Origin: a virus
Lineage: Duplodnaviria > Heunggongvirae > Uroviricota > Caudoviricetes
Length of the DNA: 64,000 nucleotides
Reading direction: 5' to 3' (one strand)
IMG/VR virus record: IMGVR_UViG_2913112809_000002
Each line of letters opens with the position of its first letter. The stretch's first letter is position 1. The notes beneath the pieces are model-generated. The model did no database searches. It worked only from the letters and a program-made list of their open reading frames with translations, and had not been told where the DNA came from. A program made the translations under genes and the position numbers. Shown one piece after another: positions 2,553 to 22,898 of this stretch.

Positions 2553-3176
2553 CTAACGTGTGACCGCATTCAAAATGTTGTCTGCGATTGACTCTTCCTT
2601 GTGGCATTGCACCACCAGAGCGTCATACAGTGGCTTAACAGTGCGTGACCAGGTGGGTTGAGTAAGATTTGGGATTAGCATCGTTACAGCGCGATATGCG
2701 GCGCTTGCTGGCATCCTTGAATAGCCGACGCCTTTGCATCTTCCGCATTCTTTCTCAACAACTCTCCCCCACTGCTCTGTTTTTGCTATATCAACCGCAC
2801 GGCCTGTACCGTGACAATCTCTGCATCTTGCGCCCGGCGTCGCGGCACTACGGCAATAATCCGCATAAGCGAATGTTGCAAGCACTTGCAGTACCTTTGC
2901 CTTAGTATTTCCTTCAAGCTTTGCCACACCACGGTATTTCCCCGATACCTTGTGTGCAAATTGCATCAGATAGTTGATAGCCTTTTGTTTGTCGTTCTGG
3001 CTGAGTTCGTGCTTACCGCAGAATGCAGCCATTCCGAATCCGGCTTGTGATTGCGCCATCCCCATAGCAGCCATCACATCAGTACCAGAAAGAGAGTCAG
3101 AAGCCGTGGCCCGTGGTGAGTCACTCATCATCGGGCTTTTTGGCGAATGAAATTTAGCCACGCTTTCGAGTCTCAT
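2553..3176 (-). CDS. Q: Late antiterminator Q (lambda Q-like)
   Basis: 207 aa, [28 protein letters not shown]... with CxxC...CxxC zinc motif; matches lambda Q as recalled. Confidence 0.85.
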
Positions 3177-9451: not shown

Positions 9452-9679
9452 TTATGCAGCCAGAAGGTTCTTTTTGCTTATTTCAAGCATTTCGCTTGCT
9501 TGATATTTGCCACCAGAAATCTCTTCGATTTTTGATGCGTATTTAGTTTTCCCAAAAAACTCAGTCTTAGGGAGGAAGCCGTTTTTGAGCCACTTATAGA
9601 CAGCCCTTTCGCTAACTCCACAAGCCTTCGCAACTTCAGGGATGCCGACACCTTTAATCGGCTCATCAAGATTTTGCAT
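9452..9679 (-). CDS. Cro-like repressor (HTH)
   Basis: Divergent from cI; MQNLDEPIKGVGIPEVAKACGVSERAVYKWLKNG...; start set at second Met because upstream Met lies inside operator palindrome. Confidence 0.5.
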   Translation of the reverse strand: MQNLDEPIKGVGIPEVAKACGVSERAVYKWLKNGFLPKTEFFGKTKYASKIEEISGGKYQASEMLEISKKNLLAA

Positions 9680-9757
9680 AGGAATATCCTTTTTCGTACT
9701 TTCAGTACGCATTATGATTGAACTGAAAGTTTTTGCAAGTGCTTTAGTATCGTACTC
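9680..9757. promoter_or_regulatory. OR operator/promoter region (PR/PRM)
   Basis: Perfect palindrome cgtactttcagtacg at 9695..9709 plus half-sites actgaaagt (9722..9730) and cgtac (9751..9755) between cro-like and cI. Confidence 0.55.
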
Positions 9758-10465
9758 ATGGTTCAGAATGAAAAAGTGCGCAAAGAATTCGCCCAGCGGC
9801 TAGCGCAAGCCTGTAAAGAAGCTGGTCTTGATGAACATGGTAGGGGGATGGCCATAGCCCGTGCCCTTTCTCTTTCGTCCAAAGGCGTTAGCAAATGGTT
9901 TAATGCTGAGTCTTTACCGCGTCAGGAAAAAATGAATGCGCTTGCGAAATTTCTAAACGTTGATGTTGTTTGGCTTCAGCACGGCACTTCGTTAAATGGA
10001 GCGAATGATGAAGATACTCTTTCATTTGTTGGCAAATTAAAAAAAGGGTTAGTGCGCGTGGTTGGTGAGGCAATTCTTGGTGTTGATGGTGCCATCGAGA
10101 TGACCGAAGAGCGCGATGGGTGGCTCAAAATTTATAGCGATGATCCTGATGCCTTTGGTCTTCGTGTGAAAGGAGACAGCATGTGGCCCAGAATAAAATC
10201 AGGAGAATATGTACTCATTGAGCCTAACACCAAAGTATTCCCGGGTGATGAGGTGTTTGTCAGAACCATCGAAGGACACAACATGATCAAGGTTCTTGGC
10301 TATGACAGAGATGGAGAATACCAATTTACAAGCATCAACCAGGACCACAGACCAATAACGTTGCCTTATCATCAAGTAGCCAAAGTGGAGTATGTGGCTG
10401 GTATTCTGAAGCAATCTCGCCATCTGGATGACATCGAGGCAAGGGAGTGGCTGAGAGATTCCTGA
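9758..10465 (+). CDS. cI: CI repressor (HTH + S24 LexA-like peptidase)
   Basis: 235 aa; N-terminal HTH, C-terminal GDSM...K autocleavage domain. Confidence 0.9.
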   Translation: MVQNEKVRKEFAQRLAQACKEAGLDEHGRGMAIARALSLSSKGVSKWFNAESLPRQEKMNALAKFLNVDVVWLQHGTSLNGANDEDTLSFVGKLKKGLVRVVGEAILGVDGAIEMTEERDGWLKIYSDDPDAFGLRVKGDSMWPRIKSGEYVLIEPNTKVFPGDEVFVRTIEGHNMIKVLGYDRDGEYQFTSINQDHRPITLPYHQVAKVEYVAGILKQSRHLDDIEAREWLRDS

Positions 10466-10571
10466 CATCAAAGTCATAGAGTGAGTTTTCTAGTTAGAAA
10501 TAGTGGTCAATGGGTACGCGTAGGTAAACCGTTTAAACATAATAAACAAGCCATATAAGATGAAATAAATC

Positions 10572-10928
10572 ATGAGCGATAAAGAGTTTAAAGTACTTAA
10601 TTTTGATGACTTTGCTCATTATTTGAGCACATTGAACGGCGAACAAATTTGTCCAATGTGTATGGAAGAGTCATGGACGCTTTTCACCCCAAACAAGCTT
10701 CCTCCAGAAGACGAGGATAGGTATGTAATAAGTTCTATCCCAGGATCACTTATTTCAAGTAAAAGACCTGAAAAATCAAATCTCTTCTTCAGAAGTTACA
10801 ACAACGATGTCCTCCTGATGCAATGCAGAAATTGTGGATACATGGCATTTTTTAATTATAAAAAAGTCCAAGAAAACCTTGAGTCAGGGGATTATATAAA
10901 AAAAAGAAGATATAGATATGGTGGATGA
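10572..10928 (+). CDS. Hypothetical zinc-ribbon protein (cargo at rexA position)
   Basis: 118 aa, CPMC and CRNC pairs; AT-rich; stop overlaps next start (ATGA). Confidence 0.55.
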   Translation: MSDKEFKVLNFDDFAHYLSTLNGEQICPMCMEESWTLFTPNKLPPEDEDRYVISSIPGSLISSKRPEKSNLFFRSYNNDVLLMQCRNCGYMAFFNYKKVQENLESGDYIKKRRYRYGG

Positions 10929-11410
10929 AAATGACAAATCAGAAGACTGATTTCTTCCGTCCAATGGAGTATGATAACAAATATGAGCAATTTGGTGTTA
11001 TAGAAGCACACAGGAATGGTCGCTCTACTCCGTCATATCAGCCAGGCACCATTGGTAAGGATATCCCGGTTATTATTGCGCATAAGTTAAGCGATCAACC
11101 AGCAGAGGGTGAGTCACAGATGAGCGTAAAATCACTGTCACGTTGGGAGTTTTGGCTAGGGATTTTCACTGCCATTATTGGGATATTTTCCATTGTTGTA
11201 GGAGCAACGTGGACAATTTCTAATAATATCAATGATAAGATTAATGCATCAAGACAAGAGCTAACTGGGAACATCCAATCCAGTCGAGCAGAAATCACGG
11301 CAAGAATTGACAGGCTCGAAGATAAGATGGAGTCTAATTTCAAAGAAACATCATCGAGCCTGTTCAAAATACAGGCAATTCTAGAAGCAAAATCCGACAA
11401 AGAAAAATAA
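10925..11410 (+). CDS. Hypothetical single-pass membrane protein with coiled-coil C-terminus (cargo at rexB position)
   Basis: 161 aa, TM segment WEFWLGIFTAIIGIFSIVVGATW, heptad-like C-terminus; followed by terminator. Confidence 0.55.
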   Translation: MKMTNQKTDFFRPMEYDNKYEQFGVIEAHRNGRSTPSYQPGTIGKDIPVIIAHKLSDQPAEGESQMSVKSLSRWEFWLGIFTAIIGIFSIVVGATWTISNNINDKINASRQELTGNIQSSRAEITARIDRLEDKMESNFKETSSSLFKIQAILEAKSDKEK

Positions 11411-11416
11411 GAAAGT

Positions 11417-11440
11417 CCGGCCTCAGCGCCGGGTTTTCTT
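11417..11440 (+). terminator. Intrinsic terminator after cI/cargo operon
   Basis: ccggc-ctcagc-gccgg hairpin followed by gttttcttt. Confidence 0.55.
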
Positions 11441-11594
11441 TGCCTCACGTTCCCCACACCTAATAACACATTAACCAATTGTATTTATTGAAAAATTGAT
11501 AGATACAACTTGCTAAACCACGAAATTCTGATCCCTGCCGCATAACCTTCATCCGCAACATTTACAAAAATAAATTTCCTTATATATCAAAATC

Positions 11595-11665
11595 ATATTT
11601 CGTAGAGTTAATAAACCACAAAAATTTCGTACCAATAGTTCTTGATAATGTCGAACTATTGGTTC
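11595..11665. promoter_or_regulatory. OL/PL region
   Basis: Half-sites ttcgtag and ttcgtac matching OR half-site ttcgtac; 11-bp inverted repeat accaatagttc/gaactattggt at 11631..11663. Confidence 0.4.
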
Positions 11666-11714
11666 ATTATTATCGCCATCAGCAGGAAGCTGGAAGCCAA
11701 ACGGAACAGATTGG

Positions 11715-11870: not shown

Positions 11871-12206
11871 ATGACGGTAATCGTGTACGGAAAATCAACA
11901 TTTGCAGGAAATGCCAAAACTCGCCGTCATGAGCGGCGCAGAAAGCTTGCTATTGAGCGTGATGCTATCTGTAACATCATTGATTCTATCTTCGGCACAG
12001 ATAGTGAGGAACCTGTTCAGGAGGCCCCAAGAAAGCGTTTAAGCCTTTCTGAAAAAGCAATATCACTCGGAAGCCTTCGCTGCAAGAAGGCAGAAGAAGT
12101 CGAGCGTAAACAGAACCGTATTTACTACAGCAAGCCACGCAGTGAAATGGGTGTGACCTGTGTCGGTCGCCAGAAAATGAAATTAGGCAGCAAACCACTT
12201 ATTTGA
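11871..12206 (+). CDS. N: Antiterminator N (P22 gene 24-like arginine-rich motif, lambda-like C-terminus)
   Basis: ARM GNAKTRRHERRRKLAIERD; C-terminus YSKPRSEMGVTCVGRQKMKLGSKPLI resembles lambda N; SD gagga before ATG. Confidence 0.75.
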   Translation: MTVIVYGKSTFAGNAKTRRHERRRKLAIERDAICNIIDSIFGTDSEEPVQEAPRKRLSLSEKAISLGSLRCKKAEEVERKQNRIYYSKPRSEMGVTCVGRQKMKLGSKPLI

Positions 12207-12216
12207 GGACTGATAC

Positions 12217-12459
12217 ATGAGAGTAAAAACTATGGGCGCAAGCCCATTAAGCGGTCGTATTTTTCAAGGAACATTAAACACTGAAAAAGGAATGTGGGTA
12301 GGAAAAAAAGAAGATGTAACCGAACAGGCAGTTAAGGCAGTAACTGAACACCTGATGATAAAAGACCGGAAATATGCATACGAAACGAATGATGGCAAAT
12401 GGGTGATAATAATGCATCAACTGGTTGATGAATTACCAGAAGAGTTTATTGCTGATTAA
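12217..12459 (+). CDS. Hypothetical protein
   Basis: 80-aa ORF directly after N, AT-rich. Confidence 0.4.
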   Translation: MRVKTMGASPLSGRIFQGTLNTEKGMWVGKKEDVTEQAVKAVTEHLMIKDRKYAYETNDGKWVIIMHQLVDELPEEFIAD

Positions 12460-12490
12460 AATTATTTTGGCATAAACAACAGAAGCGAAG

Positions 12491-12688
12491 ATGTTGACAG
12501 TTGGTAAGTCATATTCAACTAAAAATGGAAAGACATTTAGTTGTGAAAAAGATATTGGAGAAATAGACACCATCTTTCCATTTGGTGGATGGGTATACAA
12601 TTCTGATGGAAGCAAAGACAGATTTGCATATTACACCAGAGGAGGTGCTTATAAACCAACCAAATCAGAATATGACTTAATTATTTAG
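12491..12688 (+). CDS. Hypothetical protein
   Basis: 65-aa ORF, AT-rich. Confidence 0.35.
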   Translation: MLTVGKSYSTKNGKTFSCEKDIGEIDTIFPFGGWVYNSDGSKDRFAYYTRGGAYKPTKSEYDLII

Positions 12689-12834
12689 CACAGAGAAGCA
12701 CTGTGTATTCATTCCAACGAGTGAATACACGGAGCAATGTCGCTCGTAACTAAACAGGAGCCGACTTGTTCTGATTATTGGAAATCTTCTTTGCCCTCCA
12801 GTGTGAGGGCAATTTTTTTGACGGAGAAATTATG

Positions 12835-13248
12835 AAAATTACAGATATTCTGGTTAATCCAGATAATTACGACCAATTCAATATCTCTACTAAATCGGTT
12901 GATTTGGGATGTGCAACTGTCAGCGCATGGCTACTTAATGGTAAACAGTTGGATAAATGCCTTGATGCACATATGACGGTTAACAGCTTCCTTGCAGAAA
13001 AGACACACTGGCAAGATGCTGGAGGGAAATATGCTGGATGGCTTGAAAGCATGGGATTTGAATATCAATCTGATGAAGGTTGGTGGAGCCTCATAGCTGT
13101 AACGCCTGAGACAATAGAATGCTTCGTTAAATACTCAAACGACGATGACTATAAACACCAGGTAGATTCTGCGATAGAAAGATATAGAAGAAAATCATTC
13201 AACCACGAAATATCATCAGTTCTTGATTTCATAGAAGTATTCAAATAA
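12835..13248 (+). CDS. Hypothetical protein
   Basis: 137 aa from MKITDILVNPDNYDQ..., SD ggag before ATG; preceded by hairpin and T-run at 12788..12823. Confidence 0.45.
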   Translation, partial: KITDILVNPDNYDQFNISTKSVDLGCATVSAWLLNGKQLDKCLDAHMTVNSFLAEKTHWQDAGGKYAGWLESMGFEYQSDEGWWSLIAVTPETIECFVKYSNDDDYKHQVDSAIERYRRKSFNHEISSVLDFIEVFK

Positions 13249-13331
13249 GCCGCCAAGAGCGGCTTTACCGCATACCAATAATGCTTCACCCGAGGCATTT
13301 CCGTTATGTGTAAATAAATAAGGAGCACACC

Positions 13332-13771: not shown

Positions 13772-14452
13772 ATGGGAACTGCGACATTAATACTCGGTGA
13801 GTCTGGCACCGGAAAATCAACCAGCATGAGAAATATCAATCCCGAGGAAGCAATACTTATAAAACCAATAGGCAAGCCGCTACCATTTAAATCAAAAGAC
13901 TGGCTTGCATGGGATGCCAGAGCAAAAAAAGGAACCGTAGTTACCACTGACAAATGGGACGTAATAGTTGCCGTAATTAAGCGTGCTCACGAATACGGGA
14001 AAAGAATCGTTATTGTTGATGACTTCCAGTATGTGATGAGCAATGAGTTTATGCGCCGCTCAGAAGAAAAATCGTTTGATAAATTTACTGAGATAGGCCG
14101 CCACGCATGGGAGGTGATTAAGGCTGCACAGGATGCGCCTGATGACCTGAGAGTCTATTTTCTTGCCCATACCGAAGAAACCCCTATGGGGCGTGTGAAA
14201 ATGAAGACTATCGGCAAAATGCTGGACGAGAAAATCACTGTCGAAGGCATGTTTACTATAGTTCTTCGCACTCTTACCCGCGATGACCAGTTCTTTTTCA
14301 CCACGAAAAACAACGGTGCAGACACTGTTAAATCCCCAATGGGAATGTTTGATTCCAATGAGATTGATAACGATCTCTCTTTCGTCGATGCCACTGTTTG
14401 TGATTACTACGGCATCAATAATGTTCATCAAATTAAGGAAAACGCCGCATGA
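13772..14452 (+). CDS. P-loop ATPase (AAA_24/Sak4-like recombination-associated ATPase)
   Basis: Walker A GESGTGKS, Walker B RIVIVDDF; position of recombination module. Confidence 0.55.
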   Translation: MGTATLILGESGTGKSTSMRNINPEEAILIKPIGKPLPFKSKDWLAWDARAKKGTVVTTDKWDVIVAVIKRAHEYGKRIVIVDDFQYVMSNEFMRRSEEKSFDKFTEIGRHAWEVIKAAQDAPDDLRVYFLAHTEETPMGRVKMKTIGKMLDEKITVEGMFTIVLRTLTRDDQFFFTTKNNGADTVKSPMGMFDSNEIDNDLSFVDATVCDYYGINNVHQIKENAA

Positions 14453-15356: not shown

Positions 15357-15543
15357 GGAATTTACCATGAGAGGACTTGCATACAATCCCGGCATTCTTC
15401 CGGCAGAAATGATTATTCGCCAACGCGTAAAGCCAATGCCATCAAGAGAGGAATTACTTAAGAGAAATAGTTTCGGTTCTGTTAACGACAACAGATATCT
15501 TGAAATGATTTTGAGGAGTAAGAAGGATTATGTCAAAAAATGA
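15334..15543 (+). CDS. Hypothetical protein
   Basis: 69-aa ORF. Confidence 0.3.
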
Positions 15544-16108
15544 CATTTCATATGAATACCTCATTAGCAACATTCACTACGATAAAGAAACTGGGGTTTT
15601 CAAGAAGATAATTAAATCAAATAATGGGGATATAATTGGTTTCAAACCAACTGGCTGTACGCACTCGATGGGATACATAAGGATATATATTAATAAAAAA
15701 TGGTATTTAGCGCACAGACTAGCTTGGTTATATGTTACCGGGAAATGGCCAGTAAATGTAATTGATCACATCAACAGAAATAAAGCTGACAACAGGTTTA
15801 TTAACCTACGAGATGTCTCCAGTAGGGAAAACAATAGCAATACAAGTAGAAATAAAGGAACTGAAATAGGCACAGAAAGGTGTGCTTATGGATGGAGAGC
15901 ATACATAGGTGTTAATGGAAAACTACATCACCTTGGCTCATATGCAACATGTGATGGTGCAAAATATGCGTATGCTCTAGCAAAATATCAAGTAGAAATA
16001 TATGGTTACCTGCGCCCCACACCAATCGATTGCAGAAAATTAAATTACGGAAACAGGGGGAATCGTAATGGAAATCCTAAATCAAACCGTCGCAAGTTCC
16101 ATCAGTGA
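15530..16108 (+). CDS. HNH homing endonuclease
   Basis: [16 protein letters not shown]...[20 protein letters not shown] motif; AT-rich insertion-like. Confidence 0.75.
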
Positions 16109-21374: not shown

Positions 21375-21734
21375 ATGCGTATAGAGTTTGTTTTGCCTTA
21401 CCCGCCGACGGTGAACACCTACTGGCGACGTCGTGGCAGCATATATTTTGTATCAAAAGCCGGTGAGCGTTATCGCCGTGATGTGGCGCTTATTGTTCGT
21501 CAGCAGCGGCTGAAATTAAACCTGTCCGGAAGGCTGGCGATAAAGATTATTGCAGAGCCACCGGATAAGCGCCGTCGTGACCTGGACAATATTCTGAAAG
21601 CTCCACTGGATGCGCTGACGCATGCCGGACTACTCATAGACGACGAGCAGTTTGATGAAATCAATATTGTGCGCGGTCAGCTCGTTCCTGGTGGGCGGCT
21701 GGGGATAAAAATCACAGAACTGGAGTGCGCATGA
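21375..21734 (+). CDS. rusA: Holliday junction resolvase RusA
   Basis: 119 aa with DKRRRDLDN...LIDDEQ RusA motifs. Confidence 0.85.
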   Translation: MRIEFVLPYPPTVNTYWRRRGSIYFVSKAGERYRRDVALIVRQQRLKLNLSGRLAIKIIAEPPDKRRRDLDNILKAPLDALTHAGLLIDDEQFDEINIVRGQLVPGGRLGIKITELECA

Positions 21735-22420
21735 ATAACCAGTATTTACAGTTTGTTCGTGAGCAACTCATGATTGCCACCGCCGATTTGAGTGGAGCAA
21801 CAAAAGGACAGCTTGAGGCCTGGCAGGAGAATGCCATGCTTGAAACAGGGCGTTACAGGCGTAAAAAAATCCGGTACCGCGATGAAGTGACCGGAAAAAT
21901 GATAACGCGGGATAATCCACCAATCCCGGGAAAACAATCGCTTGCGAAAGGTTCGTCAATTCCTCTGGTAAGTCAGGTTGAGTTTTCGACATCATCATGG
22001 CGACGGGCAGTTCTGTCTCTTGAAGAACATCATAAAGCCTGGTTGTTGTGGTGTTACAGCGGCAGCATTTGCTGGGAACACCAGATCGCGATAACGCAGT
22101 GGGTGTGGAATGAATTTAACGCACAATCCGGTACCAGAAAAATTGCAGGGAAAACGCTGGAGCGCCTGAAAAAATTAATCTGGCTGGCGGCACAGGATGT
22201 CAGAGGATGGATTACCGGGCGTGAGGTCTACCAGCGACAGGAACTTGCCAGGCTGTGTGGAATTAAACCTGACAACTGGAGCCATAATTATGCGAACTAC
22301 TGGCGTGAGATGTGCGACATTTTTAAGAATCTTGATACAGAATCCTTGATTTGCACAGTGAAAATGAGAACGCAACAAAAAGCGACCTTTTCGCGACGAG
22401 ATGTTGCAAAAATCAATTAA
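21725..22420 (+). CDS. Late antiterminator Q-like protein (Qin quuQ-type)
   Basis: 231 aa; position before terminator, tRNAs and lysis genes. Confidence 0.6.
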   Translation: MRMNNQYLQFVREQLMIATADLSGATKGQLEAWQENAMLETGRYRRKKIRYRDEVTGKMITRDNPPIPGKQSLAKGSSIPLVSQVEFSTSSWRRAVLSLEEHHKAWLLWCYSGSICWEHQIAITQWVWNEFNAQSGTRKIAGKTLERLKKLIWLAAQDVRGWITGREVYQRQELARLCGIKPDNWSHNYANYWREMCDIFKNLDTESLICTVKMRTQQKATFSRRDVAKIN

Positions 22421-22744: not shown

Positions 22745-22820
<76 letters not shown>

Positions 22821-22823
22821 TAT

Positions 22824-22898
<75 letters not shown>

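Follow-up and report, generated by a model that had tools for sequence, protein, structure and literature searches.

The subject of this report is a pair of overlapping genes, here called open reading frame 1 (ORF1) and ORF2, that lie directly downstream of a cI-type repressor gene in the IMG/VR virus record IMGVR_UViG_2913112809_000002 (Caudoviricetes). All coordinates, unless another sequence is named, refer to the 64,000-nucleotide (nt) stretch of that record that was analysed, hereafter the window. The two genes belong to the immunity region of a lambda-like prophage, which runs here opposite to the standard lambda map. An earlier note, made from the letters of the window, had singled them out as an uncharacterised two-gene cargo operon in the place that rexAB holds in lambda, and had suggested a role in phage exclusion or defence.

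Layout of the locus

The features of the region are as follows.

Up to 9712, minus strand: DnaB-type and O-type replication genes, cII and cro
9452-9712, minus strand: cro, divergent from cI
9738-9711: PR-like promoter, predicted
9758-10465, plus strand: cI-type prophage repressor of 235 amino acids (aa) (Peptidase_S24, 3.8e-16; HTH_3, 1.2e-5), the upstream gene of the putative operon
10466-10571, plus strand: spacer of 106 nt between cI and ORF1
10572-10950, plus strand: ORF1, an acidic protein with a predicted C4 zinc ribbon, 125 aa when intact; in the letters of the window it ends at 10928 (118 aa)
10898-10905, plus strand: homopolymer run of eight A (A8) that shifts the ORF1 frame
10920-10924, plus strand: GGTGG, a Shine-Dalgarno-like sequence for ORF2 within the 3' end of ORF1, as read from the sequence
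10931-11410, plus strand: ORF2, 159 aa (161 aa with the start at 10925)
11409-11440: Timm-type intrinsic terminator, bidirectional in form, with a GC stem at 11417-11432, an A-tract before it and a U-tract after it
11642-11670, plus strand: PL-like promoter (TTGATA-17-CATTAT), which opens the next operon
11871-12206, plus strand: N (N_peptide, 2.8e-26)

As the earlier note described, two ORFs follow cI on the same strand (10572-10928 and 10925-11410 in the letters of the window) and end at an intrinsic terminator before PL and N. The note had begun the cargo operon at 10466, which is too far upstream since 10466-10571 is spacer and the coding part begins only at 10572. On the plus strand between cI and ORF1, no promoter-like or terminator-like sites were predicted. 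The stem-loop with its U-tract (-16.2 kcal/mol, z -2.4) is well matched outside the window: 34 bases around it are 97% identical to the terminator that the depositors of the phage mEp332 genome annotated as Timm; Timm is the terminator of the PRM and PRE transcripts. The AT-richness that had been remarked upon was also borne out, with a GC content of 37.4% in the cassette compared with 46.0% in cI, 46.1% in N and 49.9% in the window. The AT-rich cassette is 940 bp long, bounded at about 10477 and 11416, and its make-up is typical of a moron.

Exchange of cargo at the repressor slot

The pair stands directly downstream of, and co-oriented with, a prophage repressor in at least 20 loci, with gaps of just 38-74 nt in some of them. 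Its hosts are Escherichia, E. albertii, Citrobacter (in two Rac-like prophage types), Yersinia rohdei, Arsenophonus and Providencia, and it is also found on metagenomic contigs. At least nine repressor types adjoin it, including non-S24 ones, and the genes 3' of it are N, kilR or other PL genes, while the surrounding modules for replication, N and Q are freely variable. One Edwardsiella locus of the pair has no recognisable repressor. In the P22-like coliphage N7 the pair comes after an Arc-family gene that takes the place of mnt, and it is convergent with the ejection-protein genes (gene 16); P22 holds orf59a and sieA at this position (PMC10883804). Between the pair and the ejection-protein genes, N7 also has ORF14 (L001 5922-6242), a protein of 106 aa with no PADLOC hit that is absent from the lambda-like versions of the locus.

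The junctions of the cassette are sharp, the left one lying at about 10477 and the right one being the terminator. Homology to an Stx2a phage with the same cI allele stops at 10476 and resumes at 11417, and in relatives with a different repressor it begins right at the cI stop. Other cargo is found at the same junctions, in keeping with the note's view of the segment as a cassette in the rexAB slot. Between the shared cI 3' end and terminator, the Stx2a-converting phage Stx2_131033 (L002 6661-8007) has another uncharacterised two-gene cargo: an NYN-domain nuclease of 285 aa and a DUF3024 protein that matches PADLOC candidate PDC-S43 (7e-42). Phage mEp332, of lambda immunity, has a single conserved hypothetical gene of 345 aa between cI and Timm (L029 1457-2494). 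The cI-N slot, a known hotspot for exchange and defence, holds rexAB in lambda and bstA in BTP1 (PMC8585504), and in the BstA paper this interval is described as a mosaic diversity hotspot whose promoter is among the most active prophage promoters of the lysogen (PMC8585504). True SieB genes sit elsewhere in related prophages (L018, L022).

A cassette of this kind could also be lysogenic-conversion cargo unrelated to phages, with an envelope or stress function for the host, as with bor or lom. An AT-rich moron with its own terminator and a membrane product, whose conserved helix is possibly periplasmic, would suit such a role. We nevertheless consider it very unlikely, since it would leave the obligate, presumably cytoplasmic zinc-ribbon partner unexplained, since the pair occupies two classical exclusion slots (rex and sieA), and since the family searches revealed no similarity to known envelope or virulence factors.

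Family size, pairing and selection

A search for ORF1 in a word index of 5.8 billion proteins gave five clusters, and an exhaustive profile search of 1.84 billion representatives gave 65, all of them stand-alone proteins of 80-160 aa; the ORF2 searches gave 22 clusters. Where dS was unsaturated, the ratio of non-synonymous to synonymous substitution rates (dN/dS) of both genes against their homologues was 0.09-0.45. Since this indicates purifying selection, ORF1 and ORF2 are real genes rather than ORFs that arose by chance. The two overlap by 1-26 nt in 10 of the 10 loci from which both were extracted, and the pairwise identities of the two proteins correlate (r=0.83). The pair is an obligate, overlapping and co-inherited unit. 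Even very distant ORF1 relatives, with about 20% identity and coming from a metagenome and a Methylorubrum prophage, are followed by a small coiled-coil protein with a single transmembrane (TM) helix.

As DNA, the cassette is rare. Megablast found no match to it in 5,426 complete E. coli genomes, and against 50,697 phage records the terminator alone was matched, yet about 150 draft contigs carry it. In the literature searched, which did not extend to Brenes and Laub 2025 on prophage defences against temperate phages, neither the accessions nor the PHROG identifiers were mentioned, and the motifs of ORF1 and ORF2 were absent from the DefensePredictor supplements.

Two small overlapping genes, one of them encoding a membrane protein that is essentially one long helix (see below), are also what a toxin-antitoxin-like addiction pair that stabilises the prophage would look like. 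ORF2 would then be a small membrane toxin and ORF1 its labile antidote, the acidic disordered tail of which could serve degradation or neutralisation. Classical toxin-antitoxin operons, however, autoregulate, whereas no promoter of its own was predicted for the pair and ORF1 lacks DNA-binding features. Furthermore, gene order and position in the repressor operon are conserved, while toxin-antitoxin pairs usually occur at scattered sites. An addiction pair therefore seems to us highly improbable as a full account, although toxin-antitoxin and abortive-infection functions overlap, so that it is partly a sub-case of defence.

A one-base discrepancy at the ORF1/ORF2 junction

The two proteins encoded by the window exactly match those annotated in Escherichia sp. 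E4742. Two other assemblies of this strain (L030 and L031) are available, namely a contig of 5.12 Mb and an assembly made independently from run SRR6148341. They show no mismatches to the window over 3471 and 2113 nt, and their sole difference from it is one missing A, such that the A8 of the window at 10898-10905 is a run of seven (A7) in both. A7 is likewise found in all eight relatives with 98.7-99.2% identity across the whole 980 bp, where this single base is the only gap. An allele with six A, encoding a protein of 113 aa (P0110), occurs in four other E. coli accessions.

The discrepancy alters the end of ORF1. Its closest relatives are 125 aa long and end in the acidic tail EDIDMVDENDKSED, whereas the window copy ends in RRYRYGG. 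With A7, ORF1 of this strain also has 125 aa, its stop lies at 10950 and it overlaps the 159-aa ORF2 by 20 nt. Since the extra A is absent from the other E4742 assemblies, the 118-aa ORF1 and the ATGA overlap with ORF2, both of which the earlier note had reported, are specific to one assembly; of the coupling deduced from ATGA, it is the overlap of the genes that holds. The 161 aa given for ORF2 should also be revised, as its start is most likely the ATG at 10931, giving 159 aa. This start has GGTGG 6 nt upstream and is the one called in all relatives. The differing length of the A-run could reflect either an error in sequencing or a hotspot of slippage where ORF1 and ORF2 meet, and the run is prone to length change since alleles of six, seven and eight A all occur. 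A programmed frameshift at the run was rejected as the explanation for the window because the other assemblies of the same strain have A7.

A frameshifted ORF1, in which the acidic tail (net charge -7) has been replaced by RRYRYGG, might also be taken as a sign that the pair is a decaying pseudogene without function in this strain. We give this only the slightest chance of being correct, since A7 is intact in both other assemblies of the strain, since the extra base affects neither the zinc-ribbon core nor any part of ORF2, and since the family is under purifying selection.

Properties of the two proteins

Both proteins were modelled with AlphaFold2 (AF2) and scanned with PADLOC, as the earlier note had advised; the scan gave no significant match. 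The note had seen two CxxC pairs in ORF1 and suspected a zinc ribbon, and the family strengthens this suspicion. CPMC occupies residues 27-30 and CRNC residues 85-88, and among 59 relatives the four cysteines (C27, C30, C85 and C88) are the only invariant columns, with W35 and G89 nearly invariant. The AF2 model is a confident one (predicted local distance difference test, pLDDT, 83.5; predicted template modelling score, pTM, 0.72). It begins with an N-terminal helix, continues with three strands that flank both CxxC knuckles, and closes with a C-terminal helix and a tail without ordered structure. The modelled knuckles sit on beta-hairpins, as in a structural zinc ribbon, and could bind one zinc ion; ORF1 is thus presumed to be a zinc-binding protein. 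Its overall fold had no match among solved structures. Against Pfam Zn_ribbon_13 (DUF2082), ORF1 scored 16 bits where the cut-off is 23, and 19 of the 59 relatives gave hits to this or other named zinc-ribbon families only below threshold. ORF1 does match phrog_4293 (7.9e-15), a PHROG annotated as of unknown function.

Members of the ORF1 family have a net charge of -5 to -11, compared with about zero for the frameshifted copy of the window. Since the protein is strongly acidic, nucleic-acid binding is probably not its role. ORF1 is taken to be cytoplasmic, since zinc needs reduced cysteines and no signal peptide is present.

ORF2 has the single TM helix that had been predicted for it, at about residues 74-94 (FWLGI...GATW). 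This helix is preceded by a poorly conserved N-terminal tail of about 70 aa that is predicted to be disordered, and followed by a well conserved C-terminal helix of about 65 aa. In the AF2 model the TM and C-terminal regions form a single continuous helix (residues 71-158, pLDDT 83-92). The C-terminus had been described as coiled-coil-like, and while a long helix is indeed present, its hydrophobic periodicity peaks at 3.67 residues (11/3), which is that of a hendecad and not of a heptad. In agreement with this periodicity, ORF2 family members differ by 11-residue insertions at about positions 118-130 that duplicate 'xIQSSKxELx' (family alignments A5 and A6). ORF2 matches phrog_24865 (1.2e-17), which is also annotated as of unknown function. 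For both proteins these PHROGs were the sole matches, and neither fell into a Pfam, NCBIfam, PADLOC or PDB family. Weak matches of ORF2 to a 2TM effector, Saf_2TM, CyanoTRADDas_TM, LeoB, CorA and Apolipoprotein were treated as composition-driven, since they are confined to the TM/helix region and vary between members.

With regard to topology, we favour a cytoplasmic N-terminus for ORF2, because export of a charged tail of 70 residues is unlikely when no signal peptide is present. In the partners of the very distant ORF1 relatives (L025 4434-4778 and L027 4365-4865) the order is reversed: the coiled coil precedes a single, C-terminal TM helix. Should these partners be functionally equivalent, the helical domain may be cytoplasmic, a point that bears on the topology of ORF2.

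Mean identity within the ORF2 family is 19% in the N-terminal tail compared with 41% in the TM and C-terminal part. From these alignments, the variable tail would fit a partner-binding or specificity region. A rival reading is that the pair modulates the lysis-lysogeny switch or senses the state of the envelope: ORF2 would hold ORF1 at the membrane in the manner of a membrane anti-sigma factor, and release of ORF1 would tune repressor stability, induction or early transcription of its own prophage. We consider this an unlikely role for the pair, and quite markedly so.

Proposed function

Judging from its genomic setting, we estimate an even chance that the pair is expressed in lysogens and forms a two-component module of phage exclusion or defence, an exchangeable cargo of the repressor operon. 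An action against superinfecting phages is suggested by where the pair sits, in the repressor operon and also in the sieA slot, by its swaps with known or candidate defence cargo at fixed junctions, by its moron-like composition and by the fact that a soluble protein is strictly paired with a membrane protein. In such a module ORF1 and ORF2 would be transcribed from PRM/PRE along with cI, and their translation would be coupled. At the inner membrane, the disordered tail at the N-terminus of ORF2 would be bound by ORF1, which would act as a sensor or regulator, while ORF2 would be the effector, acting on the membrane via its conserved TM and hendecad helix.

Two sub-mechanisms can be envisaged. 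In the first, a Rex-like abortive infection, ORF1 would detect a phage product and free or activate ORF2, which would oligomerise and thereby cause the membrane potential to collapse. In the second, which resembles the action of SieA, Imm or HK97 gp15, phage DNA would be stopped from entering at the inner membrane, and ORF1 would serve as a partner in assembly or regulation. Abortive infection fits better on one count, since the cytoplasmic partner is obligate, whereas the entry block fits better on others, since the pair occurs in the sieA slot and ORF2 is a single-pass membrane protein. Taken singly, we regard abortive infection as somewhat unlikely and the entry block as unlikely.

Several points weigh against a role in exclusion or defence. 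No homology of ORF1 or ORF2 to known defence proteins was detected, in that scans of both proteins and of the 59 and 22 family members against Pfam, NCBIfam and PADLOC gave nothing above threshold; the best values against PADLOC-DB v2 were 0.012 (2TM effector) and, for one distant member, 5e-4 (LeoB). Neither protein has an enzymatic domain. The acidic ORF1 is probably no nucleic-acid binder, and the charges flanking the TM helix of ORF2 are balanced (K/R counts of 2.5 on each side), favouring neither topology. The support for exclusion comes from genomic context, and the cI-N slot also houses genes with roles that are not purely defensive. The entry block faces a further difficulty, since entry-blocking Sie proteins work as single genes and a strict cytoplasmic partner would be unexplained.

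Going further, we tentatively propose, at slightly less than even confidence, that ORF1 and ORF2 make up an exclusion system of two proteins in temperate phages of enterobacteria, one so far unrecognised and unrelated to any known defence protein. ORF1 would control ORF2, and the module would have been captured independently in the cI slot of lambda-like and the mnt slot of P22-like phages. Slippage in the A7 run, of which A6, A7 and A8 alleles are seen, might also turn the ORF1 tail on and off. If this proposal is true, the pair would provide a new model that is compact, at only about 285 codons, unrelated to rex and present across several genera as well as in the sieA slot. It could reveal the way in which prophages link a sensor in the cytoplasm with an effector in the membrane, or the way in which they block DNA entry, and it would be a family that current defence-annotation tools have missed. 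In practical terms, the analysis yields a precisely bounded cassette, natural variants that can be tested and a warning that the copy in the window carries a discrepancy of one base.

Other features of the window

Beyond the immunity region, the window contains two Q antiterminator genes of different families (PF03589 and PF06323), at 2553-3176 on the minus strand and 21725-22420 on the plus strand, each followed by a tRNA pair (2123-2278 and 22745-22898, respectively). The PL operon runs from N, with no integrase seen on the way, into the second Q, holin (24038), endolysin (24647), terminase (28821) and structural genes. The arrangement has the appearance of a pair of lambda-like prophages, either composite or rearranged. 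Just after N, at 12217-13250, comes another AT-rich stretch (35-37% GC), which may be further accessory cargo in the PL operon; its small ORFs are a DUF7446 gene (12217-12459), a 65-aa ORF and a 138-156-aa ORF without a family match. Also inside the PL operon, an HNH_3 endonuclease ORF (7.8e-15) is found at 15530-16108, and upstream of it are an AAA_24-type ATPase (13772-14452) and a 195-aa ORF without a family.

Comparison with known systems

The rex genes of the lambda cI-N slot were the first phage exclusion to be described, and their mechanism is still debated. ORF1 and ORF2 share with RexA and RexB the slot downstream of and co-oriented with cI, which ends at Timm before OL/PL, and the combination of a soluble protein with a small inner-membrane protein; co-expression with the repressor is presumed for both pairs. 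RexA differs from ORF1 in having 279 aa and no zinc ribbon, and RexB has four TM helices compared with one in ORF2. Homology was rejected, in agreement with the earlier note, which had seen no resemblance. The PADLOC models for these proteins (PDLC02339 and PDLC02340) recovered lambda RexA (9e-110) and RexB (8.6e-61) as positive controls but did not hit ORF1 or ORF2, and hhalign gave a probability of 0.1% both for the ORF1 alignment (A4) against RexA and for the ORF2 alignment (A5) against RexB.

With SieA of P22 the pair shares a genomic position, that taken in N7, and ORF2 is of similar size (about 160 aa) and is probably also an inner-membrane protein expressed in lysogens. SieA acts alone, whereas ORF2 always has a zinc-ribbon partner. 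SieA has three or four TM helices and a cytoplasmic motif, FxRYPxEAxxFNK (PMC10883804). Homology of ORF2 to SieA was rejected, as ORF2 has one TM helix and the motif is absent both from it and from its family alignment. Neither ORF1 nor ORF2 had a Pfam hit to SieB (PF14163).

BstA, of the Salmonella prophage BTP1, resembles the pair in being conserved directly downstream of repressors, with which it presumably shares a promoter (PMC8585504). Unlike the pair, it is one large protein of the cytoplasm and has a self-immunity element based on DNA, and PADLOC gave no BstA hit for ORF1 or ORF2.

The gp30 and gp31 proteins of mycobacteriophage Butters, an example of two-gene prophage defences sited beside the repressor, are unrelated to ORF1 and ORF2, come from a phage of another host phylum and include a membrane partner that is multi-spanning. 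They nevertheless offer a parallel to the arrangement proposed here, being a two-component system, expressed from the prophage, in which a cytoplasmic protein is joined with a membrane protein (PMC7542560).
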